The position numbers were made by a program, and so were the translations under genes. Shown in pieces: positions 472-28,094 of a stretch of 32,000 nt of DNA; position 1 is the stretch's first letter, and each line of letters opens with the position of its first letter. Location of the stretch: positions 600,001 to 632,000 of the forward strand of contig CP013062.1 of the NCBI GenBank assembly GCA_001430755.1, written 5' to 3'. The stretch is from Candidatus Peribacter riflensis. Its GTDB lineage: Bacteria; Patescibacteriota; Gracilibacteria; Peribacterales; Peribacteraceae. The notes below the pieces were generated by a model. That model was not told the origin of the DNA. It worked only from the letters and a program-made list of their open reading frames with translations, and did not search any database.

Positions 472-2232
472 ATGCTTTCAAAGAGAAAAATCCTCTTCGC
501 GACGCTCTCTCTCCTGCTCCTCTGCTGGATCACGAGGACTGAAGGTGTGGGCGCTCTCGCCCTCATGCAACCGGCCCTGGCTGCCGGAGATGATCTCGAT
601 CCCTTCTTCAAGATCATCAACCAGCTCTTCAGCTGGCTTGCCATGTTCTCGCACTTCCTCATCTACATTCTCACGGCAATCGCCGGAATGTTGATGGATC
701 CTGGTTTCATGAACCTGAGAACCGACGGGCAGTCGATGGGAATGACTCTGCTCAAGATCTGGCAGATCTCGCGCAATATCACCAATATCCTCCTCGCGTT
801 CCTGCTCATCATCGGAGCCATTATGACCGTGGTGTTCGCAGAGGGCGGCTACGTGCAGAAGTACGCCGTGAAGTTCGTGCTGGCCGTCTTACTCGTCAAT
901 TTCTCGTGGTTCTTCCCACGGGTGGTCTTGGACCTCGCGAACATCCTCACGGCAACGGTCTACTCGCTCCCCAGTGCCATCAACGTGCCGTGCGTAGCCT
1001 ACGACGCAAAGGGCAATGTCGATCCGGCCGGGTGCAAAATCATCACGGATTTCGCCTTCTTCGGCAATCAACCGGCAGGTGCAGACTGGAAATGCCCCCT
1101 TGATTTCAACGCGGATACGAAAATCGTCTGCATCAAGGAATCCCCACTCGATCCGCAGGCCAATACCCCCAATGCCATCTTCGGCAGCCTTGTCTACAAC
1201 CACGCCCGTTTTCAATTCTTCCCCAAAGTCGTGCCCCCGGCCGGCAACAATCCGGCGGCAGGACCTGCGGCACTGTCCCGCCTGCCGCAACTGCTGATGT
1301 TCACCCTGCTCATGTCCATCATGCTCTTCTTCAGTCTTGCCCTGCTCTTCCCGCTCCTCGCTCTCACACTCGTCCTCCTCATCCGCATTCCCATCATCTG
1401 GATCACCGTGGCCTTCATGCCCTTCATGTTCATCGGATTCGTAGCGGGAGACACCCCCGCACTGAAGGTCTTCAACCCCATGGAAATCTGGAACAAGTTC
1501 CTGCACGCGGCGTTCATTCCCGTCGTCGTCGCCATCCCCTTCTCGATCGGCTTCATCATGCTCAATGTGGCCATGGCCAACCCGCCAGCCGGCTGGGCTG
1601 CCAACCATCCGTTCATGCGGAACGGAGTGGTGCCCATGCTGCCCGGCGTCATCAACCTCTGGCAGCTTCTGTGGGTCGGCATGTCGATCGCCGTCATATG
1701 GATGGGCGCAAAAGCCGCCTTCAAGATGGATGCCCTGTTTGAGAAATTCGCTGCACCCATCATGAATGCCGGCGCATCCTTCGGACGGTTGATGATGAAG
1801 CTGCCGCTCCTGACCCCCCTGCCACTGCCGGGAGGTTCCATCACGCCGCTGGGCGCCATGCGCGTCGCGCAGAATGCCGAACATGCATTCATCGACCCCG
1901 TCGGAAAATTCCGCATGCCGGAGGTCTTCGGCGGCGCGGCAGGAGCTGCCGCAGTCGCAGGCACGAAACTCGCCGATCACATCAACATCAACGTGCCGAT
2001 ACAGAATACCATCCGCAATGAGATCAACAGCTTCAACACTGCAGCTGACGGCGCTCCGGGGCAGGCCATCCGCGACGAGGCCATTCGCAAGATCCGCGAC
2101 GAACTGCAGAGATCTGCGACGCAGGCCGGCGTCGCAGTCGATCTGACCAATAACCGAAATCTTGTGGAGGTCCTGCGCAAGATTTCGGACAAGGTTCCGG
2201 GCGTCGGAAGACTCAACGAAGCCAAACTTTAA
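472..2232 (+). CDS. polytopic membrane protein of unknown function
   Basis: ORF track 376..2232. I prefer the ATG at 472, where MLSKRKILFATLSLLLLCWITRTEG looks like a signal/anchor. Codons are GC3-rich. The protein has many hydrophobic segments, a 4-Cys loop (VPCVAY..GCKII..WKCPL..IVCIKE) and a soluble C-terminal tail. I recognise no family by eye. Confidence 0.85.
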   Translation: MLSKRKILFATLSLLLLCWITRTEGVGALALMQPALAAGDDLDPFFKIINQLFSWLAMFSHFLIYILTAIAGMLMDPGFMNLRTDGQSMGMTLLKIWQISRNITNILLAFLLIIGAIMTVVFAEGGYVQKYAVKFVLAVLLVNFSWFFPRVVLDLANILTATVYSLPSAINVPCVAYDAKGNVDPAGCKIITDFAFFGNQPAGADWKCPLDFNADTKIVCIKESPLDPQANTPNAIFGSLVYNHARFQFFPKVVPPAGNNPAAGPAALSRLPQLLMFTLLMSIMLFFSLALLFPLLALTLVLLIRIPIIWITVAFMPFMFIGFVAGDTPALKVFNPMEIWNKFLHAAFIPVVVAIPFSIGFIMLNVAMANPPAGWAANHPFMRNGVVPMLPGVINLWQLLWVGMSIAVIWMGAKAAFKMDALFEKFAAPIMNAGASFGRLMMKLPLLTPLPLPGGSITPLGAMRVAQNAEHAFIDPVGKFRMPEVFGGAAGAAAVAGTKLADHININVPIQNTIRNEINSFNTAADGAPGQAIRDEAIRKIRDELQRSATQAGVAVDLTNNRNLVEVLRKISDKVPGVGRLNEAKL

Positions 2233-2254: not shown

Positions 2255-3532
2255 ATGGCAGACGCCCCACGCGAATCACAGGCACAAGCACCCGAACAGC
2301 GTGAGCGCGTCACCGAGAGCGAGGTGAAACAGGCGCTCAGGCGGAATACGGCCGAGAACCGCCCGGTACACCCACGCGACGCGGAGCGACGCGAAGTGGA
2401 AAATACCCGTGACCTCAGTCTGACGACCATGGCGGTGGAAATGCTCCCCCGCGAGGGACGCATCTTGCAGAAGGAACTGGAAAAGGCGAAGAAGAAGAGC
2501 GAAGTCCCCCACCTGATCGAGAGCCAGAAGAAAGCGCAGGCCGTCGTCGGCGCGTACCTGGCGAGTCTCAAGCAGGATCTGAAGGAGAACTTTCCGGAAG
2601 AGGACTTCCGCGCAGCCTCACGCGCACATGCCAAGGGCATTCAGCGCAAGATCGAGGCCATGCTCGACCAGGCCCAGCGCGAGGGGCTCGTGACGGTCTA
2701 CAACGGGCGTATCGCGAACCGCGTGGGCTACGCGGCCGCGTGGATCGAGGAGTTGAAGCAGATGCGCAGCGGCCCCGACCTCACGCCGGGCCAGAAGCAG
2801 GCGATCATGCGCGTGGAGCGCTTCTTTCAGACCGTGCTGGATGGCGACCCCGCGTGGACACAGGCCTACAAGATCGTGCATCAGAAGCGACCGGAATCCG
2901 ACGCCGTACGACGCGGCAAGGGAGCCCTCAAGATGCTGGGCGTGCTGGCCGCAGCGGGCATGGCGTTCATCTCGGGCATTCTGGACATGAAAAATAAGCA
3001 GGTCTCGCCCTACACCCTGGCCTGGCTGGGACTCACCGGGTGGTCTGTGGGCTTCTTCAAAGGACAGGGCGAGACAGTGCGTAACCAGCTCGCCTTCGTG
3101 CCCACCAAAGACTGGGAGACGCTCTGTCAGAAGCTCGCCCTCAAAGGGCAGAACGGCGTGGATTTCATCGCCTTCATTCAGCGCGCCCACCAGAGCAAGA
3201 AAGGCAAGAAGGCCCTGGAGCTGCTCAAGAAAGCGCGACCGCAGGCCAGGCTGAATCCCCAGGAGTACATCCCGCTCCTCGTCGGCGAGAATCCGCAGGG
3301 ACCCGATGCGCAGATGGAGGCCACACTCAAGACGCTCTCCCCAGCGCAGCTCTACACCCTCTGCCTGCACGTCACCTCGGTCACCGACCGCACGGCCAAT
3401 GCGCTCCTGCGCGACTTCATCCAGAACAACGTGAACAGCCAGACGACTGCGGGTGACCTCAGGCAGTTGCAGAAGCCTCCTTCCGCTTCAACTCCTTCAG
3501 GAACACCTCCAGCTGGTCTCCCTCAGCAATGA
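2255..3532 (+). CDS. hypothetical protein with two central TM helices
   Basis: ORF track 2162..3532. The ATG at 2255 (MADAPRESQ) lies 22 nt after the upstream stop. The N-terminal half is charged. TM helices are LKMLGVLAAAGMAFISGILDM and YTLAWLGLTGWSVGFF, and the tail is Pro/Ser-rich. The last 74 nt overlap the 3' end of infB on the other strand. Confidence 0.75.
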   Translation: MADAPRESQAQAPEQRERVTESEVKQALRRNTAENRPVHPRDAERREVENTRDLSLTTMAVEMLPREGRILQKELEKAKKKSEVPHLIESQKKAQAVVGAYLASLKQDLKENFPEEDFRAASRAHAKGIQRKIEAMLDQAQREGLVTVYNGRIANRVGYAAAWIEELKQMRSGPDLTPGQKQAIMRVERFFQTVLDGDPAWTQAYKIVHQKRPESDAVRRGKGALKMLGVLAAAGMAFISGILDMKNKQVSPYTLAWLGLTGWSVGFFKGQGETVRNQLAFVPTKDWETLCQKLALKGQNGVDFIAFIQRAHQSKKGKKALELLKKARPQARLNPQEYIPLLVGENPQGPDAQMEATLKTLSPAQLYTLCLHVTSVTDRTANALLRDFIQNNVNSQTTAGDLRQLQKPPSASTPSGTPPAGLPQQ

Positions 3533-9016: not shown

Positions 9017-9093
9017 TGGTCGGGGCGACAGGACTTGAACCTGCGACCTCTTGCACCCCATGCAAGCGTTCTAGCCAACTGAACTACGCCCCG
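9017..9093 (-). tRNA. tRNA-Pro, anticodon GGG, CCA encoded
   Basis: Hand-folded cloverleaf: acceptor CGGGGCG/CGCCCCG, D arm GTTC-AGTTGGCTA-GAAC, anticodon arm CTTGC-ATGGGGT-GCAAG, T arm GCAGG-TTCAAGT-CCTGT, then discriminator A and CCA. Confidence 0.93.
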
Positions 9094-16244: not shown

Positions 16245-17666
16245 TTATACCACGCCTAATTCCTGCTCCATTGCGCGGACTTCGCGGAGCAACTGCGGAT
16301 CATTCTGCATCTTCGCGTCGATCTTGCCGCACGCATTCATCACGGTGGTGTGGTCGCGGCCCGAGAAGACTTCGCCGAGGCGCACGTAGCTCATGCGCAG
16401 GTGCTTCTTGCCCAGGAACATCGCGATCTGGCGGGGCACCAGGATCTCGCGCACGCGTGACTGACCGATCATGTCCTGCACTGAGACGGAGTAGTAGCGG
16501 CTGACCGATTCCAGCACATCCTGAAACGTGGGGGCACGCTTGGGGGTCGTCTCGAAGCCGACGTGCTCCTCCTCCGCATGCGGATCGCGGCTGAGCTTTC
16601 GCATGATCTCGGCGATACTCTTCACCGTGGGCATGCGCGACTCCAGCTCGTACTGCGCCACCGCCTGCATCAGGATTCCCTCCAGTTCGCGGACGTTTCT
16701 CGTGGTGTGCTCCGCGATAAACTGGAGCACCGTCATGTCGATCATGAGTTCGTACTCCCGTGCTTTCTCGACGAGAATAGCCAGCCGCGTCTCGTAATCG
16801 GGCACGGAAATATCGGCGATCATGCCACGCGCGAAGCGCGAGATGAGACGGTCTTCGAGCTGCAGTTCCTGCGGCGGACGGTCGGCCGAGAGAATGACCT
16901 GCTTGCGGTCTTCGTAGAGGGCGTTGAACGTGTGGAAAAATTCCTCCTGCGTGCGCTCCTTGTTCGCCAGGAACTGCACGTCGTCGATGATGAGCACGTC
17001 TACCTGCCGATAGCGGCGACGGAACTGCTCCATCTTCTGCTGCCGGATCGCCTCGATGACCTGATTCGTGAAGTCCTCGGTGGTCGTGTACACCACGACG
17101 GACCGCGGCATCTTGCGGAGGATATCGTTGCCCGTGGCCTGCAGCAGGTGCGTCTTGCCCAACCCCACTCCGCCGTAGAGGAAGAGCGGGTTGTAGCGGC
17201 CGCCCGGAGCCGCCGCCACCGACTGGCAGGCCGCATGCGCGAGACGGCTGTTGGCGCCGACGACGAAGTGTTCCAGCGTGTAGCGGGGATTCAAAATCTT
17301 GCTGATGACCCCCTCCGCCATCTTCACCTCGGGCTTGCCCGGCAGCTTGCGGCGCTTCTGTTCCGGAAAGACTTCGAGCAGATCCACCGTCCGCTCGCGG
17401 CTGTCTTTGAGCCCCCCATCCACCGTGTAGACGATTTTCTCGATGAGCGGATCAATGCCCTGCGCGATCTCGAGCGTCATGGCGCGGTAGTGTTCCATGT
17501 GCCACGAGAGTGACATGGGGAGCGGCAGCCCCACGATGAGCGTGCCGGCCTCCCTGCCCAGAATCGCCGTGTCTTTGAACCACGTGATGAAGGCGCTGCG
17601 CTGCAATTTTTCTTCCAGTTTGCGGAGGATGGCGATCCAGAGTTCCTGGCTCACCTGTTCCGCCAT
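16245..17666 (-). CDS. dnaA: chromosomal replication initiator DnaA
   Basis: Walker A GGVGLGKTHLLQA, IDDVQFL, and the domain IV sequence SRVREILVPRQIAMFL..GRDHTTVMNACGKI. The ATG at 17666 (MAEQVSQELW) is preferred because the track start at 17705 would overlap rseP. Confidence 0.97.
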   Translation of the reverse strand: MAEQVSQELWIAILRKLEEKLQRSAFITWFKDTAILGREAGTLIVGLPLPMSLSWHMEHYRAMTLEIAQGIDPLIEKIVYTVDGGLKDSRERTVDLLEVFPEQKRRKLPGKPEVKMAEGVISKILNPRYTLEHFVVGANSRLAHAACQSVAAAPGGRYNPLFLYGGVGLGKTHLLQATGNDILRKMPRSVVVYTTTEDFTNQVIEAIRQQKMEQFRRRYRQVDVLIIDDVQFLANKERTQEEFFHTFNALYEDRKQVILSADRPPQELQLEDRLISRFARGMIADISVPDYETRLAILVEKAREYELMIDMTVLQFIAEHTTRNVRELEGILMQAVAQYELESRMPTVKSIAEIMRKLSRDPHAEEEHVGFETTPKRAPTFQDVLESVSRYYSVSVQDMIGQSRVREILVPRQIAMFLGKKHLRMSYVRLGEVFSGRDHTTVMNACGKIDAKMQNDPQLLREVRAMEQELGVV

Positions 17667-17682
17667 CGGAGCCGCCACGGCG

Positions 17683-18798
17683 CTAGAAGAGGCGGATGAT
17701 GTCATAGAACGTGATGAGGAGGATGAGCAGAATGAGCACCGAGAACCCGAGCGCGTTCGAGTAGGCCTCGAAGCGGCGGTTCAAGGGCCGTCGTGTCACG
17801 GCCTCGACGAGCACGAAGAGAAGCCGCCCGCCATCCAGGGCCGGGAACGGCAGGAAATTCAAAATAGCGAGGCTCAAGCTGATGAGAGCGACCAGACGCA
17901 GGTACGTCATGAAGCCGGCCTGCACCGAGGTGTAGGTGAGCTGGGCGATCCCCACGATGCCCGTGATCCCTTCGGGGACCCTCCCGCTCTGTGCGAGAGA
18001 CGACACGAGCGTCCCGATGCCGAGCATGGTCTGCACGGTCATGATTTTCGCTTCTCGCAGTGCGAGGAGCATCGAGGTGCCCACCGAACGCAACGGGGCC
18101 GAGAGCGAACGCGGGAAGGTGGAGATGACCACACCGGCTTTGCCCTCTTTGAGCGTCACGGTGAACTTCTGTTCCTGCGCCGCCTCCCCTTCCCCGACGA
18201 GCACCGTGTACACCACTCTCCGCTTCTTCTCCTGCATCTTGCTCACCTGCTCGGCGGCAACCACAGACGTTCCGTCGACGGAGAGCAGAATGCTCTCGGC
18301 GGGCACACCCGCCACAGCCGCCGGGCCGCCGCTCAGCACCTGCTCGATGATCACACCGGGTTCCATCGCGATGATGCCGCGGTCGGCATGCGCCTGCATC
18401 TCTTCCATCGTGAAGTAGGTGGGCACCCACCGTCCGAGTGAGAAGCCGAACGTGAGGAGCACGAAGGCGAGTACGAAATTCATGAACACGCCTGCCGACA
18501 GAATCACGATGCGCGCCGTGAAGGAGGCCTGATGAAAACTGCCGGGCCGGTTCCGTTCGTTGGGCATCATCGCCGTCTCGCCCCTCAGACGCACAAACCC
18601 TCCGAAGGGCACCCAGTTGAGCGTGAACTTCGTCCCATGGCGCGTGAAGAGCGTGCGTGCCTTTGGCGGCAAGCCGAAGCCAAATTCCTCCACCGTCACC
18701 CCAGCGCTCCGCGCCGCGATGAAGTGCCCGTACTCATGGATGAGGATGAGCAGGGTCAGCAGGAAGACAAAGGCCACTACTGTGAGAAGCATGGTCAC
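17683..18798 (-). CDS. rseP: site-2 (M50/RseP-type) intramembrane zinc metalloprotease with a PDZ domain
   Basis: HEYGHFIAAR (HExxH) lies in TM1, a central PDZ-like region follows, and the C-terminus carries LNFLPFPALDGG. The start is either GTG at 18798 or ATG at 18792. Confidence 0.9.
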   Translation of the reverse strand: MTMLLTVVAFVFLLTLLILIHEYGHFIAARSAGVTVEEFGFGLPPKARTLFTRHGTKFTLNWVPFGGFVRLRGETAMMPNERNRPGSFHQASFTARIVILSAGVFMNFVLAFVLLTFGFSLGRWVPTYFTMEEMQAHADRGIIAMEPGVIIEQVLSGGPAAVAGVPAESILLSVDGTSVVAAEQVSKMQEKKRRVVYTVLVGEGEAAQEQKFTVTLKEGKAGVVISTFPRSLSAPLRSVGTSMLLALREAKIMTVQTMLGIGTLVSSLAQSGRVPEGITGIVGIAQLTYTSVQAGFMTYLRLVALISLSLAILNFLPFPALDGGRLLFVLVEAVTRRPLNRRFEAYSNALGFSVLILLILLITFYDIIRLF

Positions 18799-19822: not shown

Positions 19823-21349
19823 ATGGCAAGCACAGAAGAAATTGGGAATTCTCCCAAAGGCGAAAACAAGGAAACAATGACTGAGAACACCAAAGATCGT
19901 CTGCTCGTTCTCCGGAAAAAAATCGAGGAGGGTGCAGTGCAAAGATGGGAGGCAGTCTTCGAGAATCAGAAAGTACCCGCACTGCATCTTTCTCCACAGG
20001 AGATTCAGGCGTGGTCACGCGTGTACATGTCGAATATGCAAGTGTCGGGACGACTCTGGTCAGTGGAAGACAACGCTATTGGCAAAATAGAGGAAATGAC
20101 TCTCATCAATGTCCGCGGAAAGAACGCGACATTGCTGAGTGCCGAAGTGCTATCCATCGCACGCACATTTGCGGACCGGAAACTTGTCATTCTCTGCAAA
20201 CAGCCTGAAATGGGCATCCAGGCATTTGAGGAAAAAGCTATGCAAGAATTGCTGCAGCAAGGACTGCAAGATACGAAGAACGTCCATTTTCGTTATGCAG
20301 AACATTATCGTGATCATTGGGCGAGAGACAACTTCTTGCGGGTCTATGACTATCGCTACGGGAAGAATGTCTTCGTTCACTCAACCCAAAATGAGCGAGG
20401 AGCATTTGCGAAGGAGTTGGCGGAACAAGATGCCGAACAACGATCAATCCATGAAGAGATCCCCTTCTATTTTGAGGGAGGTGATCTTCGATCAGTTGGC
20501 CCCTATTTGTTCATAGGGAAAGAATCGCTTGAAAAAGCTGGACATGCCCTGAGAGGAAATAAAGTGGATGTGCACCCGAAGCTGGTACCCATGAATATGA
20601 ATCCCGGCGAAGAGGACTTTTATGCACAGAAGAGAACGGAGACATCATCAGAAGATAGGGAGGCGCAAGAAAAAATTCTCCAGAGCCTTGGGGAGCTTTT
20701 TGGACGGAAGGTGGTGACAGTGGGAGAGGGTGACAAGTATGAGCAAGCCCTATTTCACATTGATATGTTCATCACGTTCCTTCCCAACGCGGATCAGAAA
20801 CCGACGGTTGTGGTCGGGGACATCGGTCAAACGATGAGCATTCTCGATCAGCTTTCCGAGAAAGAATGGAATCAAACCCATCAGACAATGCTTGGTTCGC
20901 AAGTGCTGCTCGGGACTGGAAAACAGCACACCATCATCGACTTGTCTCGAAATAAAGAGGACGTCGTCCGCGAGATGAAAACAGAGTCCAGCACAAGACT
21001 CCTTCGAAGAGGGCTCGATGCAGCTGCTGATTGGTTCGCGAATCAAGGATTCTCTGTTGTACGAACACCGACAGTCATTTCACAGAAGCATTCCAGATAC
21101 AGGGCATACAACAATGCGATCGTTGAGGCCTATGTGGATAAAGATGGCAACCTGAAGAGAAAAATATATATTCCTTCTTTTGGCATTTCTCCTCTCGAGC
21201 ACGTCCTTGTTCAGAAATACAATACGTTAGGATATGAAGTGATTCCCGTTCCCAATCTCTCTTCGTCAGCGGAAAACAGAGGTTCTCTCAATTGCCTCAC
21301 CTCAGAGAAACGTTTCCAATTCGACAAAGAGTACCGGGAAGGACAGTGA
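19823..21349 (+). CDS. guanidino-group-modifying enzyme, agmatine deiminase / Porphyromonas-type peptidylarginine deiminase fold, with a ~170-aa N-terminal extension
   Basis: HWARDNF, FYFEGGDL..LFIG, ALFHIDMFITFLP, RAYNNAIVE, IYIPSFG and the C-terminal GSLNCLTSE (catalytic Cys block) appear in the order expected for this superfamily. G+C is visibly lower than in neighbouring genes. Confidence 0.7.
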   Translation: MASTEEIGNSPKGENKETMTENTKDRLLVLRKKIEEGAVQRWEAVFENQKVPALHLSPQEIQAWSRVYMSNMQVSGRLWSVEDNAIGKIEEMTLINVRGKNATLLSAEVLSIARTFADRKLVILCKQPEMGIQAFEEKAMQELLQQGLQDTKNVHFRYAEHYRDHWARDNFLRVYDYRYGKNVFVHSTQNERGAFAKELAEQDAEQRSIHEEIPFYFEGGDLRSVGPYLFIGKESLEKAGHALRGNKVDVHPKLVPMNMNPGEEDFYAQKRTETSSEDREAQEKILQSLGELFGRKVVTVGEGDKYEQALFHIDMFITFLPNADQKPTVVVGDIGQTMSILDQLSEKEWNQTHQTMLGSQVLLGTGKQHTIIDLSRNKEDVVREMKTESSTRLLRRGLDAAADWFANQGFSVVRTPTVISQKHSRYRAYNNAIVEAYVDKDGNLKRKIYIPSFGISPLEHVLVQKYNTLGYEVIPVPNLSSSAENRGSLNCLTSEKRFQFDKEYREGQ

Positions 21350-21382: not shown

Positions 21383-21459
21383 TGGTGGGCAGTACTGGAT
21401 TCGAACCAGTGACCTCCGCGATGTCAACGCGACGCTCTAACCAACTGAGCTAACTGCCC
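21383..21459 (-). tRNA. tRNA-Val, anticodon GAC, CCA encoded
   Basis: Hand-folded cloverleaf: GGGCAGT/ACTGCCC acceptor, GCTC-AGTTGGTTA-GAGC D arm, TCGCG-TTGACAT-CGCGG anticodon arm, ACTGG-TTCGAAT-CCAGT T arm, then ACCA. Confidence 0.93.
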
Positions 21460-22320: not shown

Positions 22321-22447
22321 AAAAAAGTGGCTTCCATAAGCCATAACTGAAAACAGTATGTCGAAATCATCGTTTGAGAAATCTGCAACTTTGCGGCATG
22401 GGCAAAATGCCATTTTTCCGCTAGAATAGAAGGATTTACACACACAT

Positions 22448-22915
22448 ATGACAGACACCCACACCCTCATCAGCTGGACCGCTCCCGAGCGCCCTCCGCA
22501 CAACCGCGGAAAGCGCTGGTACCTGATCGCCGGAGTGATCGCGGCACTCCTCTTCGGCTATGCGCTCTTCACACAGGCCTGGACCTTCGCCCTGGTCATC
22601 GCGCTCCTCGCAGTCACCTACGCCATCATCCATCACAAGCCGCCCCTGTCGCACTCCGTACAGGTGACGGCGCACGGACTTACGTGGGACAAAACGATCA
22701 TTCCCTGGAGTGTACTGAGCGGATTTTGGATGTTGCAGGGGCCCGGGTACATCGAACTCCACATCGAACGAAAAAAGTCTGGAGGCCGGCTCACGGTACA
22801 GACGGGCGATTGTGTTCCGTTGGAAATTGCCGAGACGCTCTCGCAATTCATCCCACTGATTCAGGACCGGAGAGAAAATATACTTGACTACATTATTCGC
22901 ATCTGTAAACTTTGA
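22448..22915 (+). CDS. small membrane protein: N-terminal 2-TM hairpin plus a PH-like soluble domain (guess)
   Basis: LISWTAPERPPHNRGKRWYLIAGVIAALLF.. is followed by a second TM helix and a ~90-aa domain. Its stop TGA at 22913-22915 is 1 nt from the next ATG. Confidence 0.75.
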   Translation: MTDTHTLISWTAPERPPHNRGKRWYLIAGVIAALLFGYALFTQAWTFALVIALLAVTYAIIHHKPPLSHSVQVTAHGLTWDKTIIPWSVLSGFWMLQGPGYIELHIERKKSGGRLTVQTGDCVPLEIAETLSQFIPLIQDRRENILDYIIRICKL

Positions 22916-22916
22916 C

Positions 22917-25900
22917 ATGCTGAGCTTCAACGCCTTCGTTCGCTTTGCTCTCAGCCGCTCTCCCCTCCGGGAGCAGCGCGAACTCCTGTTCAGCGCCAAA
23001 AAGAAAGACCCGACACAGGAAGGGCAGACCGGCCCGCAGGAAACACCCGAAACGGAACGCTCGTTTGATGATGACCGCCTTGTGGAGCGCGAAGCACAGG
23101 AAACCGGTGCACAGATCTCTTCGGTGCTCCGCACGTTAGACAGTCAGGAAATTTTTGACCGCCTGGGCGAAGAACTGAAGAACGGAGAGGCGTTTGACCG
23201 CCTGTTCACCCACGAAGAGTCGACAAAAGGCATTGATCTCTCCTCCATTGCAACGAGATCAGGAATCGCGATTTACATGTCAGAGCGGGATTCCGTCCTG
23301 CCGCAGGGAACCCCGCGCGAAGTGCTCTCCGCCATCATCGACTTCGATACGCAGAAGGGATTCCCCATCGAAGTGAAGCGGACATTCATCGAGATGCTCC
23401 TGCGTGGGGCCCCCCGCATGACCGCCACATTCGCACGGGCAACGGTGACACGCATCAGAGACTACGAAGAGCAACAGGCAGCCATCGAAACCGCACGCAA
23501 GCGCTTCGAGACGGAAGAGATGCTCGGCAAGATCGGCCCGAAAGGCATGGCGGTGGCATCGCGCTTAAGTCTCGGAGAGATCCCGAATATCCAGGCTGCC
23601 GTGAACGAGATCGGAGCGAAGCACCCGCTCAGCATGGATCAGGTCCGCGAGCTCTACACAACACTCGACAACGTGAGTGAGGCGATGCGCAAAGTGAGAG
23701 AATTCGGCAACCGCTACTGGGGCACTGCCGAAGTGCTGCCGCCAGAGAAAGACGAACAACGGCAACTCGAGTACCTGCATCACCTCAAAGAGCAGGCACG
23801 CGATCTCTCGCGGCTGCTCTCGATTCAACTGAGACTGGGCGCACAGGACACGGTGCAACACCTGGAGGAAGGCGCGGCAGAAGCCATGAAGCAACCAAAG
23901 GCGCAAGGCATGGAAGATGCGATTCAGAGGAGCGCGGCGGATCCGGGCATGCGTGCCCTCAGGCTCATCGCAAAGGTGGATGACCCGCAGAACGATCTCG
24001 TGCAGGATCCCAACAATCCGCACTTCACGCAGCTCTCAGATGCATTCCTCCGCGAGTCCGAGCAACACCTGGCTACGCTCGATTCCATTCAGGAAGACAG
24101 CAATCAACTCCTGGCGCGTTGGAAGAGCCCCGAAGGACTGACCGATGAAACCCGCGACCAGAAGGGACGGCATGAATGGGCCGAACGATGCCGCACGATG
24201 GTGCAGACCATCCTGACGGACCCTGCGCTCAGCGCTAAAACGAAGCAACACCTTGAACAATTCAACGAGCAATTGCAGGATCCCGCCGCCCTCTCCGCCT
24301 TCAGCGAGAAGGAAATGGTGCGGGAAGAGTACGGCGCAAAAATTCTGCTCGAGCAGGGAGAAGCCGCGTTCACCGAAGCGAAACAGGAAGGCACGGACAC
24401 GCTGCACACCGTGATGAGCGAACTCACGGATACAGACACCCTCGCGTGGATCGATGCAAAAAAGAAGGAGGCAAAGACTCTGGAAGACGAACTCTCCGCC
24501 CTGCTCACACACCCCGTATGCCCGGCACTGGGCATCGTAGGACTCGTGCAGTCCTACTCCCGCGATCTGCAGGGTGAGCTCACGTTCCTTGCAGAAACCA
24601 GAATCCCGGATGCGCAGAAGAAGGAGATGTGCGAACGGATCGGCGTGCAACTGCAACACTGGCAACAGGCATACACGCTCGTCCGCAAGCTCGAACAGGC
24701 GACTGCCCATGTGCCGCCGGAGGGAAACGAATGCATCCGCGTCCTCCCGCGGGAGGAATACCTCGAAAAATTCGGCGTCGAGACATCCCGTGCATGCTAC
24801 TTCCGCGGATTCATCTACATGCGCGGAGATGTGCCGGAGGACGAGCGGCCCGCACTCATCGAACATGAGAAAGGACACTTCCTCATTGCGATTCTCAGCG
24901 ATCAATCACACCTCTTCCCCGACCTCCTGGAACGGTCTTTCGGCGAACCGACACCCGAACACTGGACCCTGCTCGAGTCGAAGGCGAAGGGATGGGGAAT
25001 CAGCAAAGAAGATATCCGCACCCAGTACCGGAGGGAGAATCCGACTCTTCCCGAAGCACTGTTGAATGCGCGCGTGGAGGCCCGCTACCGGCGTGCACTT
25101 CTGGAAGAGGCGACGGTGCGCGGGGCACTCGCTCCGGAAGGGCACGGGGATCGGCAATGCTTCGAAGGCCTGAAGAAAGAAGAGCTCGTGCAATTTGAGA
25201 GCGCCACGCCACTCCACTCTACGGACGATGAAGCGTTCCCCGTCGATGCGGAGGCGATGCAGCAGGCTCCCGCTGACACCAATTCCTACAACGCGCACGA
25301 GGATCTGGAAGCCATTGACCGCATGGTCAACGGCATCAAGACATTCGGCAATGCCTACGGCACACGTGATCCGCGCGGGACGAGCCGTCACTTCGACCCG
25401 CGCATAAAGCAGCAGGCCGATGCGATCGTGGATGGCGACGGGGGGTACCAGGATATCCTCGACGAACTCAAATTCATCCACACGAACGGCCAAACGCGCG
25501 CCGGGGAATCGGTGGATCCGCAGTACAACACGAAGTACCGGGAAACGGTTCTCAGATTCAAAGAGCACGTCAAGCAAACCCATGACCAGGTGGACGCAAT
25601 AGAAAAGTATTTCGCCGAGATCGCAAAGGAGCCCATGTCGAAGAAGAAGACGATCTCAGAGAAACTGGGCATCCAGTGGCTCTGCATCCTCGACATCATG
25701 CGCATGTACAAAGAGTTCGTGGAGGATATCGAAGGCATGTGGCACTCCATGCAGGACCAGAAAACCGCCGACGCCAAAGCGGCATTGACGAAAAATCTGC
25801 CCGTCTACATCCCCGGCACCAAAATCAAGATCCCCATCATCGGCAAGTACACCGAACGCCTGCCGCACTACACGGAACGCGCGCGGAACAGCAAAGAGCT

Positions 25901-27470
25901 CGAGCGTGTCAAGAAGTGGGAAGATTCCTTCACCAACCTCGACGCGGAAGAGCTCCTCGATTTGATCGGCAAAACACCCACCAGAGACCAGCTGCGTGCC
26001 AGTATCGAACTGCTCGTCAAAAAGGGCCGCATGAGCTGGGGGGACCACCGCGTCTGGAAGGCGCTCAATCAGAAATCGAATTACAAGATGCCCTTCGGCC
26101 CCTGCGAGCGGGATGAGACGCTGCGCGACAAGTGGCTGCATAAGCTGATCTCGGACATCTGGAACGACAAAGACATGTTCAACGAGTGGATGACGGGCAA
26201 CAGCGGCAATTTCGACAAGCACAAGCAGTCTTACACCCACGAAGCAGACAACTTCGCCAACATCGCGGGCAAGACGGCCTACGAGCTGCACGTGATGCTC
26301 AGGACATACGTGGAGTGCCACGATAAGGGCGGGAACTTGATCAAGCCGATGCCCGAGGAGGTGAACCCCCATCACTTCGAGGAGCTGCTCGTCTACTCCA
26401 TGCGCAACGGCAAGATGAGTATGGAGCAGAAAATCTACTATCTGATCCAGGGTGTCGCTTCCGGGTTTTTGACCCTGGAACGACTGCGTGCCATCGCGGG
26501 CGAGAAGGGAGGCGTCCTGCTCAAATTCCCCTTCTTGGACTACTTCTACCAGCGGCACAATACGCTCCCCGAAATCCGCTCTATCGCAGCACGCATTACG
26601 GAGAGAGGCCCCGACGGCAAATCAACCTTCCTGCCCGGTGCCAAGACAACGATGTTCATGCGCCTCGTGATCCTCCGCGACCAGAAGGCCCTCGAACGTA
26701 TTTCCAAGGCACTGGACAAGGGCGCAGAGGGGCTGGACCACGAAGATATTCCATACATCGCCACCGAGATCGACTGGGTGAAAATGGGAGGCCTGCTCGA
26801 CGTGATGAGCGGAGGCCGATCCAAAGTGTCGAAGGAAGGATGGAAGAACGCCTACGTGGGATTCAATGAGAAATTCAAGGTCTACGCGCACCTGGCCAAG
26901 CTGGCGAAGAATAAACGGGCGATGTTCACCGAGGAGGACGCGAGGAATCTGGCACAATCCGTCGGCGCGTACATCGTGATGGATAACCAGATGATGCGCG
27001 CGGTCAAGCTCAAGAACGGAGGAATGATCTCCCTCTCGCGCGAGGCGCTGGAGACCGAGCGGCCGGTGGCAAACCCCGCACTGCGCACGGCGGATTACCG
27101 CAACCGCTCGCGCGACTTCATCTTCGACCTCGTGGGGCGGCTGGGGATGCAAGATAGCGACCTCGGCGTCAAGGACCTCACCCTGCAGCAATTCCTCGCG
27201 AACCGCGACCGCGACCAGCGCAGCATCACCAGCGAAGAGCAGGACAAGATCGAAAAGGCAAAAGAGCCGTTCATCACGGCACTCGCAAGGAAGATCGCGA
27301 CCAGTGGGGGCACCCAAACCCTCATGGACGTGCTCGCCGAATTCGAAGACACCACATACGCCGCCGGGGGCAAATTCCTCGACAGTCATACCGAAGATGT
27401 CAATGAAACGGAACTGCAGAAATACCACGGCGAATTCGCGAGGCGCTATCAATCGATCGTCGGACAGTAG
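22917..27470 (+). CDS. 1,517-aa orphan protein with a single HExxH (HEKGH) putative zinc-peptidase motif
   Basis: A long uninterrupted frame with normal composition. All antisense ORFs here are Arg/His-rich shadows. The ATG at 22917 is preferred to the TTG at 22884. I see no TM segment or signal peptide by eye. HEKGH is encoded at 24864-24878. Confidence 0.85.
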   Translation: MLSFNAFVRFALSRSPLREQRELLFSAKKKDPTQEGQTGPQETPETERSFDDDRLVEREAQETGAQISSVLRTLDSQEIFDRLGEELKNGEAFDRLFTHEESTKGIDLSSIATRSGIAIYMSERDSVLPQGTPREVLSAIIDFDTQKGFPIEVKRTFIEMLLRGAPRMTATFARATVTRIRDYEEQQAAIETARKRFETEEMLGKIGPKGMAVASRLSLGEIPNIQAAVNEIGAKHPLSMDQVRELYTTLDNVSEAMRKVREFGNRYWGTAEVLPPEKDEQRQLEYLHHLKEQARDLSRLLSIQLRLGAQDTVQHLEEGAAEAMKQPKAQGMEDAIQRSAADPGMRALRLIAKVDDPQNDLVQDPNNPHFTQLSDAFLRESEQHLATLDSIQEDSNQLLARWKSPEGLTDETRDQKGRHEWAERCRTMVQTILTDPALSAKTKQHLEQFNEQLQDPAALSAFSEKEMVREEYGAKILLEQGEAAFTEAKQEGTDTLHTVMSELTDTDTLAWIDAKKKEAKTLEDELSALLTHPVCPALGIVGLVQSYSRDLQGELTFLAETRIPDAQKKEMCERIGVQLQHWQQAYTLVRKLEQATAHVPPEGNECIRVLPREEYLEKFGVETSRACYFRGFIYMRGDVPEDERPALIEHEKGHFLIAILSDQSHLFPDLLERSFGEPTPEHWTLLESKAKGWGISKEDIRTQYRRENPTLPEALLNARVEARYRRALLEEATVRGALAPEGHGDRQCFEGLKKEELVQFESATPLHSTDDEAFPVDAEAMQQAPADTNSYNAHEDLEAIDRMVNGIKTFGNAYGTRDPRGTSRHFDPRIKQQADAIVDGDGGYQDILDELKFIHTNGQTRAGESVDPQYNTKYRETVLRFKEHVKQTHDQVDAIEKYFAEIAKEPMSKKKTISEKLGIQWLCILDIMRMYKEFVEDIEGMWHSMQDQKTADAKAALTKNLPVYIPGTKIKIPIIGKYTERLPHYTERARNSKELERVKKWEDSFTNLDAEELLDLIGKTPTRDQLRASIELLVKKGRMSWGDHRVWKALNQKSNYKMPFGPCERDETLRDKWLHKLISDIWNDKDMFNEWMTGNSGNFDKHKQSYTHEADNFANIAGKTAYELHVMLRTYVECHDKGGNLIKPMPEEVNPHHFEELLVYSMRNGKMSMEQKIYYLIQGVASGFLTLERLRAIAGEKGGVLLKFPFLDYFYQRHNTLPEIRSIAARITERGPDGKSTFLPGAKTTMFMRLVILRDQKALERISKALDKGAEGLDHEDIPYIATEIDWVKMGGLLDVMSGGRSKVSKEGWKNAYVGFNEKFKVYAHLAKLAKNKRAMFTEEDARNLAQSVGAYIVMDNQMMRAVKLKNGGMISLSREALETERPVANPALRTADYRNRSRDFIFDLVGRLGMQDSDLGVKDLTLQQFLANRDRDQRSITSEEQDKIEKAKEPFITALARKIATSGGTQTLMDVLAEFEDTTYAAGGKFLDSHTEDVNETELQKYHGEFARRYQSIVGQ

Positions 27471-27518: not shown

Positions 27519-27959
27519 ATGCAGGTCGCCATTCAGCGGGTCGATGCCTCTCTCCCCCTCCCCAGTTACCACACGGCCGGGGCAGTGGGCTTTGACCTGA
27601 TCACGCGCGAGACGACGGTGATTGAGCCCAAGAAGATCGCGCTGGTTCCGGGCAACGTGATCGTGAAGGTGCCGGAAGGGCATGCCCTCCTGATCCTCCC
27701 CCGGTCCTCCCTCCCGAGGAAGAAGGCGCTCGTCTGTCCACACTCGATCGGCGTCATCGACTGCGACTACCACGGGCCGGAGGATGAGATCAAAGTGCAG
27801 GTGCAGAACATTTCCGATGCGCCCGTCACCGTGGAGCGCGGCGAACGCATCGCGCAGGGCATGTTCGTGAAGGTGGAGCGCGCGGAATGGGCCGAAGTGG
27901 ACGGGCACGGCGCGCAGACGCGGGGCGGATTCGGCTCCACCGGCACTCACGTTCAGTAA
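27519..27959 (+). CDS. dut: dUTP diphosphatase
   Basis: GAVGFDL, LPRSSL, GVIDCDYHGP, GERIAQ and the C-terminal RGGFGSTG. Confidence 0.9.
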   Translation: MQVAIQRVDASLPLPSYHTAGAVGFDLITRETTVIEPKKIALVPGNVIVKVPEGHALLILPRSSLPRKKALVCPHSIGVIDCDYHGPEDEIKVQVQNISDAPVTVERGERIAQGMFVKVERAEWAEVDGHGAQTRGGFGSTGTHVQ

Positions 27960-27993: not shown

Positions 27994-28094
27994 CGAAGCC
28001 GCGGGTGGCTCTGACGGGCCCCGCGGCTGGAGCGATACCTTTGAAGGGAAAGGAGAGACCGTGAGAGGGAAACCGTAGGTTTCCCTTTCACGAA
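27994..28094 (+). repeat. copy A of the ~96-nt structured repeat, in the dut/ftsZ convergent spacer
   Basis: Helix 1 is GCCGCGGG (27998-28005) paired with CCCGCGGC (28020-28027). Helix 2 is 15 bp, CGTGAGAGGGAAACC-gta-GGTTTCCCTTTCACG (28060-28092). It is homologous to 19262-19362 on the opposite strand. Confidence 0.85.

Follow-up and report, generated by a model that had tools for sequence, protein, structure and literature searches.

The window analysed here, a 32,000-nucleotide (nt) stretch of the Candidatus Peribacter riflensis genome (contig CP013062.1, positions 600,001 to 632,000), carries two adjacent genes coding for a small membrane protein of 155 amino acids (aa) and for a giant protein of 1,517 aa that bears an HExxH motif. 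As judged from homologue searches and gene order, the pair is a core, lineage-specific and syntenic module, not an accessory island, and it defines two protein families specific to Peregrinibacteria. The two genes meet at a conserved junction, the giant very probably embeds a divergent zincin module, and its best-conserved part is a predicted all-alpha C-terminal domain. The composite reading preferred here, to which a probability of about 0.4 is given, is that the pair would constitute a membrane-tethered, zincin-bearing scaffold working with membrane proteins. An earlier sequence-only reading had described the pair of open reading frames (ORFs), the TGAcATG between them, the two transmembrane (TM) segments of the small protein and the HEKGH at 24864-24878, all of which were confirmed from the sequence. 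It had further likened the HExxH context to DUF4157-type zinc peptidases of polymorphic toxins and contractile injection system (CIS) cargo, an assignment that did not survive the comparison of homologues.

The Gene Pair and Its Junction

The pair and its immediate surroundings comprise the following features.

22399..22427, + strand: promoter-like site TGGGCA-17-TAGAAT, 20 nt upstream of the small gene (consensus scan, 9/12 positions)
22448..22915, + strand: small membrane protein, 155 aa (ORF, hydropathy, homologues)
22517-22633, + strand: predicted two-TM hairpin of the small protein, aa 24-42 and 44-62 (hydropathy)
22913..22919, + strand: coupled junction TGAcATG, with the small-gene stop 1 nt before the giant start
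22917..27470, + strand: giant protein, 1,517 aa from ATG, predicted cytoplasmic (ORF and homologues)
27519..27959, + strand: dUTPase gene, 48 nt downstream of the giant (dut by the PF00692 matches of its counterparts in loci L001-L006)

The coupling of the two genes, from which co-expression had been proposed earlier, was found to be class-wide. The stop-to-start spacing was -4 to +7 nt in 54/55 loci and exactly 1 nt in 31 loci, a regularity judged to be beyond chance, and a homologue of the small gene was located directly upstream of the giant in all 49 loci of the GTDB scan that had at least 700 nt of upstream DNA (profile hidden Markov model, HMM; E 1e-23 to 1e-96). All small genes ended in a Lys or Arg codon followed by Leu or Ile and the stop, mostly as ...KL. 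An alternative in-frame TTG at 22884 would add 11 residues to the giant; since the starts of the homologues adjoin the small-gene stop in 54/55 loci, the comparison places the true start at ATG 22917. Most of these homologues begin with ML and have a conserved (R/H)FA...SP.RE.RE peptide.

The 20 nt before ATG 22917 contain no purine-rich Shine-Dalgarno-like stretch, and GAAGGA precedes the small gene. Because of this arrangement of initiation signals and the conservation of the junction, the giant would most naturally be translated by termination-reinitiation, and in this way both proteins would be made together. It was also observed that the last ~15 residues of the small protein (DRRE.ILDYIIRICKL; nt 22868-22912) are among its best-conserved stretches, and that the first 25 residues of the giant (22917-22991) are among the best-conserved stretches of that protein. 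This conservation on both sides of the junction could reflect a protein-protein contact, a constraint on the reinitiation site, or both.

Three promoter-like sites were found in the region against 1.6 expected, and a promoter role of TGGGCA-17-TAGAAT is only weakly suggested. An Rfam search returned no RNA element at the locus of the pair. The dut ORF matched its counterparts in L001-L006 at phmmer E values of about 1e-84 to 1e-89; the terminator scan listed no site between 27470 and 27519 (+), and dut may be co-transcribed with the giant. It lies on the opposite strand in L053, L062 and L064. Between the convergent dut and ftsZ of the window, at 28067-28085, an inverted repeat (GGGAAAC-cgtag-GTTTCCC) followed by TTTC was seen by eye and was not listed by the scan; it is likely a bidirectional terminator.

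A Core Module of Peregrinibacteria

The term orphan, previously applied to the giant, holds for annotation, since no annotated family matched it, but not for homologues. A profile search with aa 560-1517 recovered 479 representatives (one per 50%-identity cluster) at a cut-off of E<=1e-3, 127 of them at E<=1e-30, and most of the 479 were 1,450-1,930 aa long. A word-indexed search found 13 full-length relatives with 40-77% identity, whose available source names were all Peribacteraceae or Peregrinibacteria. The GTDB scan, which sampled one genome per GTDB species, yielded 58 giant loci in 58 different assemblies, one per assembly among the loci found, and the full-length homologues in these species-level genomes were again about 1,450-1,930 aa long. 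Nearly all of the 58 assemblies were named Peribacteria, Peribacteraceae, Peribacterales or Peregrinibacteria, the exceptions being 'Patescibacteria group' (n=3), 'Gracilibacteria' (n=1), 'bacterium' (n=1) and 'Kiritimatiellales' (n=1), the last of which is probably mis-binned. A scan of viral contigs returned no giant relatives. The small-protein family was likewise confined to Peregrinibacteria.

The sequence-only reading had placed the pair in the only non-housekeeping block of the window, a description reversed by the finding that this block is among its most syntenic parts. The gene order small-giant-dut-ftsZ-ftsA-exonuclease holds in 37 of the 42 loci with enough downstream DNA. A few kb upstream lie dnaA and an M50 peptidase gene, followed variably by TauE and then by the small gene, the giant and dut, after which ftsZ, ftsA and the 5'-3' exonuclease gene occupy the opposite strand. 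The window dnaA (16245-17705, - strand, 486 aa) and M50 (RseP-like) peptidase gene (17683-18798, - strand, 371 aa) were identified from their positional counterparts in L001 and L003-L005 (486-490 and 369-371 aa), where the same arrangement is found near the pair. Because dnaA lies ~5 kb upstream, the pair is close to the origin.

The variable part of the neighbourhood is the DNA upstream of the small gene. In the window it includes a 508-aa ORF (19823-21349, + strand) that the other Peribacteria loci examined lack at the corresponding place and for which Pfam, NCBIfam, PHROGs, PADLOC and PDB offered no match; by eye, its motifs FHIDMF and GSLNCLT recall guanidino-group-modifying enzymes.

The neighbourhood bears on a first alternative, in which the tethered, coiled-coil giant would be a cell-division or envelope scaffold that organises or regulates the FtsZ/FtsA ring. 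Set in a lineage from which many canonical division proteins are missing, such a role would resemble that of EzrA, a membrane-anchored coiled-coil regulator of FtsZ. It would account for the persistence of the pair beside dut-ftsZ-ftsA in 37/42 loci although the giant has diverged to about 20-30% identity, for the coiled-coil-like N-terminal ~500 aa, for the presence of a membrane anchor and for a core gene found once per assembly near the origin. However, ftsZ and ftsA are convergent with the pair on the opposite strand and so are not co-transcribed with it, and the adjacency to ftsZ is lost in a clade of ~1,790-aa giants and in the sister lineages, where pilin or polytopic membrane protein genes are found instead. 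Moreover, synteny within a class may be simple inheritance, and no FtsZ-binding motif was identified. This alternative appears rather unlikely.

Domain Organization of the Giant Protein

The following parts of the giant were delimited.

22917..22991, + strand: conserved N-terminal peptide MLSFNAFVRFALSRSPLREQRELLF, motif ML....(R/H)FA...SP.RE.RE..F.
23094..24596, + strand: helical coiled-coil-like region, aa ~60-560, the least conserved part of the giant family
24609..25136, + strand: putative minimal zincin-like module, aa ~565-740 (AlphaFold2 model, family motif, weak profile matches)
24864..24878, + strand: HEKGH (H650, E651, H654; aa 650-654), the HExxH motif
25107..25109, + strand: E731 in the L.(D/E)ELL..YA.W helix 713-738, candidate third metal ligand
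25197..25283, + strand: linker, aa 761-789, acidic and poorly conserved (predicted local distance difference test, pLDDT, <50; conservation dip)
25614..27116, + strand: predicted all-alpha C-terminal domain, aa ~900-1400, family-defining (AlphaFold2 model and conservation)
26406-26432, + strand: NGKMSMEQK motif of the C-terminal domain
26736-26747, + strand: DHED of the EGLDHED.PY motif of the C-terminal domain

Nothing significant was found for the giant in Pfam, NCBIfam, PHROGs, PADLOC or PDB sequence searches, so that no full-length match to a characterised family emerged from Pfam, NCBIfam or PDB. No Pfam family recurred among the matches of 24 diverse full-length members, and none matched the 7 sister-lineage members. 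In PDB, the single giant sequence and the profile of aa 560-1517 were both without matches, and a profile of 129 giant sequences gave only coiled-coil noise and one weak match to IrrE. A test for internal repeats or domain duplication was negative. The structural model covers aa 560-1517 (958 aa; AlphaFold2 with a 53-sequence alignment) and has a mean pLDDT of 86.9 and a predicted template modelling score (pTM) of 0.71. In agreement with the earlier description of a protein without signal peptide or TM segment, hydropathy revealed no Sec-type signal and no clear TM segment; a borderline value was reached by a single window (aa 526, 1.76; LSALLTHPVCPALGIVGLV), which belongs to a helical region and includes His, Pro and Cys.

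Conservation is unevenly distributed along the protein, the N-terminal 900 aa being 11-28% identical to 23 diverse relatives and aa 1000-1350 being 32-58% identical. At the very N-terminus, residues A11-L24 are almost all invariant in close relatives, A11, E19 and R21 reach 90% conservation or more in a set of 24 diverse members, and the peptide is recognisable in nearly all loci, including those of sister-lineage homologues. This peptide may be the docking site for the small protein. The region of aa ~60-560, with identities of 0.11-0.19 to diverse members, matched in PDB profile searches only the coiled-coil arms of SMC3, SMC6, MukB and dynactin (E 1e-7 to 1e-3, profile positions 116-530), and these matches appear to represent a compositional coiled-coil signal.

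A Putative Zincin Module

A single HExxH motif would be expected about 0.1 times by chance in a protein of this length and composition, and for this reason the motif alone is weak evidence. At the homologous column, HExxH is retained in 96 of 103 module-bearing representatives that share only about 20-30% identity, a pattern that the alignments indicate is not due to chance, and HEKGH is invariant in the 13 close relatives. Its invariance holds in part, since the remaining seven members have EExxH and the motif is absent from a distant sister-lineage group of 1,150-1,550 aa proteins. The motif is part of a larger family signature, G.Y....G.IY.N-(10-25)-HE.GHAI..L.....FP.LL ... W ... L.(D/E)ELL..YA.W, outside which the module is only 0.22-0.27 identical among diverse members. 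E731, in the last element of this signature, is conserved in 108/129 aligned sequences and varies little or not at all when only the modules are aligned.

The predicted structure agrees with the zinc-peptidase-like context that had been recognised around the motif. The model comprises a backing helix, a strand (607-610), a helix (612-619), two strands (626-629 and 632-636; SRACYFRGFIYMR) and the active-site helix (644-663), with pLDDT values of 89-97 for the core and of about 95 for the HExxH helix. A strand-helix-strand-strand order followed by the HExxH helix is the minimal zincin topology of metallopeptidase catalytic domains. When a module profile built from 33 diverse segments was compared with PDB, the top six matches were all zinc peptidases, namely snapalysin (1C7K, E 0.0087), 4HX3 (0.0091), IrrE (3DTE, 0.021), 8SLM (0.023) and the oligopeptidase A entries 4PUT and 4KA8 (0.19 and 0.51); the snapalysin and IrrE alignments span the strand-turn-strand and the HExxH. 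Among the 33 members, Pfam matches were obtained for DUF6782, a putative metallopeptidase (3/33, best 1.2e-4), Peptidase_M78 (3/33, 0.0066) and SprT-like (4/33, best 0.017), and also for Tox-MPTase4, M66 and M56, all per-member matches being below the curated gathering scores. A Foldseek search with the 958-aa model returned no zincin among the 50 matches listed and nothing at E <= 0.001. The module is very probably a divergent zincin, and the matches found place it in no single zincin family.

The more specific proposal was that the giant would be a toxin or CIS cargo with a DUF4157-type zincin, the small protein acting as an accessory or immunity factor. The HExxH zincin-like module itself would suit this proposal, as would one PF13699 match (the family is now named eCIS_core; 1/33 members, E 0.15) and one to Tox-MPTase4 (E 0.063), but these are no better than the matches to five other zincin families, and the window protein had no PF13699 match. 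Neither extracellular CIS (eCIS), type VI secretion system (T6SS) or trafficking genes nor other injection-system or polymorphic-toxin genes were found when the neighbours in L001-L006 and L065-L071 were annotated with Pfam, or among the homologues sought in the 58 GTDB loci, in whose flanks only these homologues were annotated. Furthermore, the gene downstream is dut rather than an immunity-like gene, the C-terminus is not hypervariable but exceeds the rest of the protein in conservation, PADLOC and PHROGs were empty, and the gene is found once per assembly (58 loci in 58 assemblies) in a fixed core neighbourhood and is absent from viral contigs. A toxin or CIS-cargo role is thus highly improbable.

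A different alternative retains the fold and removes the catalysis: HExxH would either bind metal in a purely structural role or persist as an inactive relic, and the giant as a whole would be a non-catalytic scaffold, which overlaps with the scaffold reading. It is consistent with the dispensability of the module in the sister lineages, the EExxH of seven members, the absence of a significant zincin-family match and the low identity of the module outside the motif. However, the general-base Glu and both His are kept in 96/103 members despite their divergence, and conservation extends to the substrate-binding edge strand (G.IY.N) and the distal Glu helix, a pattern typical of active zincins. 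This alternative is unlikely, although a serious one, and the odds of an active peptidase appear about even. Because sister-lineage homologues without the module keep the N-terminal region and the C-terminal domain, zincin activity would be accessory and not the essence of the family.

The C-Terminal Domain

The HExxH motif had been regarded as the only catalytic-looking feature of the giant, which proved misleading, since the C-terminal domain presents a series of near-invariant polar residues and the zincin module is missing in sister lineages. This domain is the best-conserved part of the giant, with identities of 0.82-0.89 to close relatives and of 0.43-0.58 to diverse ones, and it is common to the sister-lineage homologues that have no zincin module. 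Besides the two motifs in the feature list, it contains GKYTERLPHY.ER, RVKKWED.F.NLDA, KGRM.W.D..VWKALN, NPHH.EE and FPFLDYFYQRHN. The near-invariant polar residues are D926, E936, E994, D1024, N1095, E1155, K1166, K1172, R1189, R1261, K1264, D1274-H1275-x-D1277 and N1311.

Most 10-residue blocks of aa 990-1480 were modelled at pLDDT 85-97, and the stretch of aa ~905-975, which includes the GKYTERLPHY motif, at about 45-60, falling below 50 at aa 918-942. The proposed AlphaFold and Foldseek search, performed with the model of aa 560-1517, returned no structural neighbour (best E 0.045 in PDB and 0.026 in BFVD, template modelling score at most 0.14), its non-significant matches being generic HEAT/ARM solenoids and phage internal or polyvalent proteins. 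PDB profile searches likewise gave nothing for the C-terminal domain, and neither a P-loop nor another known enzyme fold was matched by structure or profile in PDB, BFVD or Pfam. On the predicted model, the domain is thus without detectable relatives, in the sense that none was detected in PDB or BFVD. A reading of NGKMS as a Walker A motif was rejected, the sequence being G-K-M and not GK[ST] and the domain being all-alpha.

The Small Membrane Protein

The small protein begins with the peptide W..PE.PPH.RG.RWY, continues with two hydrophobic segments (aa ~24-42 and ~44-62; Kyte-Doolittle 19-residue windows 1.6-2.0) and terminates in a soluble domain of ~90 aa that ends in ...DYIIRICKL. Following the positive-inside rule, an N-in/C-in topology with both ends cytoplasmic is predicted because of the RGKR before the first TM segment, the uncharged TQAW loop and the HHK after the second. 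The protein is better conserved than its partner, being 65-71% identical among relatives whose giants are 40-72% identical.

Nothing significant was found for the small protein in Pfam, NCBIfam, PHROGs or PADLOC. Weak Pfam matches to DUF5673 occurred in 6/18 members (best E 0.0024, none at the curated threshold), and none of the 18 matched bPH_2. A comparison with a pilin profile was negative (hhalign E 0.23), and the small protein was rejected as a pilin-like protein.

Possible Membrane-Protein Partners in Other Clades

The relatives of the pair outside the main clade point to possible partners, and their relevant features are given below together with the related gene of the window.

L065 2597-12224, L066 2752-11675, L071 2277-12662: five-gene operon of the sister lineages
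L060 7746-9168, L061 7847-9215: pilin triplet, with stops and starts that overlap or abut
472..2232, + strand (window): polytopic membrane protein, 586 aa, with a signal-like N-terminus, homologue of the sister-lineage operon protein of ~775 aa

Cluster look-ups assigned the distant module-less group to other Peregrinibacteria or to bacteria labelled only 'Patescibacteria group'. Three sister-lineage contigs (L065, L066, L071) have a conserved operon in which a homologue of the small two-TM protein (E 1e-23 to 1e-28) is followed by genes for proteins of 499-621 aa and 258-298 aa, for a polytopic membrane protein of 769-807 aa and, in the last position, for the giant. By eye, the translations of the 258-298 aa protein show a hydrophobic, TM-like C-terminal tail in L065 and L066. 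None of the five operon proteins had a significant Pfam match, and only a few weak ones were found (E 0.007-0.08).

The window contains a homologue of the polytopic operon protein (phmmer E 8e-19 and blastp E 8e-18 with the L066 and L065 proteins), which is encoded 20 kb from the pair and is possibly its functional partner. It had no Pfam, NCBIfam or PDB match. A weak pilin-like hairpin was found at aa 99-153 (hhalign P 0.0015), and the L065 homologue matched PF18895 at E 0.019; the window protein is possibly a divergent VirB6-like or pilin-fusion protein. Its gene is followed by that of a 425-aa protein with TM segments (2255-3532, + strand), also without Pfam, NCBIfam or PDB match.

A second context was found in the EExxH clade of Peribacteria with giants of ~1,790 aa (L056, L057, L059, L060, L061), where three tandem PF18895 (T4SS_pilin) genes, abutting or overlapping, follow the giant in all five loci. 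The six pilin genes of L060 and L061 scored 20-65 bits against a gathering score of 26.6, which four of them exceeded, and a custom pilin HMM recognised the triplet in all five loci. An aminotransferase gene comes after the pilins, and dut and ftsZ are not adjacent to the giant in this clade.

The Patescibacteria carry a type IV secretion system (T4SS) related to monoderm conjugation systems, which includes arrays of 2-11 VirB2-like pilin genes, is often encoded near dnaA and, in the class Gracilibacteria, has no detectable VirB6 homologue (PMC12102498). The giant and small-protein families are unmentioned in that study (PMC12102498). Neither of the two proteins matched a catalogued T4SS component (VirB4, TrsD, VirB3/PrgI, VirB6, VirB2) in Pfam or NCBIfam. 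We take the class Gracilibacteria of the GTDB taxonomy to contain the Peribacterales. Given these contexts, a link of the pair to a pilin or T4SS-like apparatus is put forward only tentatively.

The pilin context also raises the alternative that the giant would be a translocated effector, exported by a T4SS-like or pilus route into a host cell, in which its zincin and C-terminal domains would act, with the small protein as membrane adaptor or chaperone. Large multidomain proteins with an embedded zincin recall the polyvalent proteins that Iyer et al. in 2017 reportedly described from conjugative elements and phages, and the top BFVD matches included 'large polyvalent protein associated domain' proteins, at a non-significant E of 0.078. 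Effectors are usually variable, multi-copy or patchy. The giant is co-operonic with VirB2-like pilin arrays in one clade, and an episymbiotic lifestyle has been described for the Patescibacteria (PMC12102498). However, the giant, encoded once per assembly, was present in all species genomes that were recovered, its locus is syntenic and its C-terminal domain is very strongly conserved; moreover, it has no recognisable secretion signal, no coupling ATPase gene was found in the annotated flanks, and it is absent from viral contigs. An effector role is considered improbable.

Proposed Function and Significance

The reading of the pair as a membrane-tethered, zincin-bearing scaffold may be set out as follows. 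The small protein would form an N-in/C-in hairpin in the membrane, and its ~90-aa cytoplasmic domain would tether the giant to the inner membrane face, perhaps through the N-terminal peptide of the giant; such tethering is the most probable of the separate steps and is rated somewhat more likely than not. At the membrane, the giant would act as a scaffold or an enzyme for membrane-embedded partners, for which the proposed identities are those of the co-operonic proteins of other clades, namely the polytopic membrane protein and the VirB2-like ('T4SS pilin') proteins. From such partners it would follow that the pair could be an accessory of a pilus-like or type-IV-secretion-like envelope apparatus. 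The core function would reside in the C-terminal domain, and in Peribacteria the zincin module would add a zinc-dependent protease activity by which either a partner or the giant itself is processed.

Several observations weigh against parts of this reading. All zincin matches lie below curated or conventional significance, the best PDB E value being 0.009; the third metal ligand E731 is a guess and only a candidate; and the EExxH of 7/103 members, which form a clade of ~1,770-1,930 aa proteins, suggests that catalysis is maybe not universal. The small protein had no relative in a PDB profile search, and its soluble domain had no significant family match. In L070 (8001-12317), a 1,438-aa HExxH relative with the N-terminal peptide has no small gene nearby. 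As for the envelope apparatus, the direct pilin link was found in only 5/58 loci, a sensitive search of the main-clade flanks and the window returned no pilin-like ORF, and the polytopic protein resembles pilins or VirB6 only weakly (hhalign probability 17%). The Pfam-annotated flanks (L001-L006, L065-L071) yielded neither virB4 nor virD4, the flanks of L007-L064, which include the pilin loci, not having been systematically scanned.

A bolder version would make the pair the lineage-specific cytoplasmic and inner-membrane core of a divergent pilus-like or T4SS-like machine of Peregrinibacteria, working with the polytopic protein and with VirB2-like pilins. The polytopic protein would maybe be the missing VirB6 of Gracilibacteria, the C-terminal domain would have a new fold and, through its near-invariant D-H-x-D, Lys and Arg residues, would exert an enzymatic or assembly activity not yet described, and the zincin would mature pilins or other partners. 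As a whole, this version is speculative and unlikely.

Peregrinibacteria belong to the Candidate Phyla Radiation, a group with small genomes and an almost unknown cell biology. Since these small genomes keep a 4.6-kb gene in every species recovered, the giant is expensive and presumably important. The genomic context, with its pilin arrays and polytopic membrane protein, would tie the pair to the kind of surface or secretion machinery that is thought to underlie the epibiotic lifestyle. If the pilin/T4SS link is true, candidates are named for missing parts of the apparatus (VirB6); if it is false, the pair still serves as a clean marker of the class and as a structural-genomics target, the giant containing a confidently predicted domain of ~500 residues for which the model search found no structural neighbour in PDB. 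What is new here is the absence of relatives for about 85% of the giant and for the small protein, and no new mechanism is demonstrated.

Other Features of the Window and Its Surroundings

Two tRNA genes were identified, tRNA-Val(GAC) at 21383-21459 (- strand), between the 508-aa ORF and TauE, and tRNA-Pro(GGG) at 9017-9093 (- strand), further upstream; across the whole window, Rfam returned no family beyond these two. The L070 relative, the single exception to the pairing, has a radical SAM gene upstream and UvrA downstream. Another orphan giant of 1,575 aa is encoded in the same genome, ~8 kb upstream of the window start (L069 1784-6511, - strand), flanked by genes for proteins of 204 and 132 aa; it has hydrophobic segments in the middle of the protein and no Pfam match, and it was ruled out as a member of the family, there being no HMM match.

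Comparison with Known Systems

The DUF4157/eCIS_core proteins share with the giant a generic HExxH zincin arrangement, but the giant family differs from them in its matches (1/33), in the absence of an injection context, in being a core gene found once per assembly and in its conserved C-terminus. A likeness is also found with the minimal zincins (snapalysin/M7, IrrE-ImmA/M78, SprT-like and DUF6782), which have the same strand-turn-strand followed by the HExxH helix in a beta-alpha-beta-beta-alpha topology. In contrast with these, the module described here is embedded in the middle of a 1,500-aa protein, of which it makes up about 10%, and whereas the third ligand of snapalysin is an Asp, the candidate here is a Glu ~77 residues downstream.

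The small protein resembles bacterial pleckstrin homology (PH) proteins, as represented by YdbS and DUF5673, both of which we take to be PH-like, in its short N-terminus, its TM hairpin and the ~90-aa soluble domain that follows; the difference is that its DUF5673 matches were all below the curated threshold. With regulators of the EzrA type, the pair has in common a proposed membrane tethering, a long coiled-coil-like region and the ftsZ/ftsA neighbourhood. However, there is no sequence or structural similarity, the anchor would be a separate protein, EzrA-type regulators have no counterpart of the zincin and the large C-terminal domain, and the adjacency to ftsZ is not universal.

Finally, neither protein of the pair is homologous to a catalogued component of the patescibacterial T4SS (PMC12102498), and the main clade, including the window, has no pilin gene adjoining the pair. 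The likeness to that system lies in genomic context: the pair is co-operonic with a PF18895 triplet in one clade of Peribacteria, its sister-lineage counterpart is co-operonic with a polytopic and possibly VirB6-like protein, and the pair is located near dnaA.

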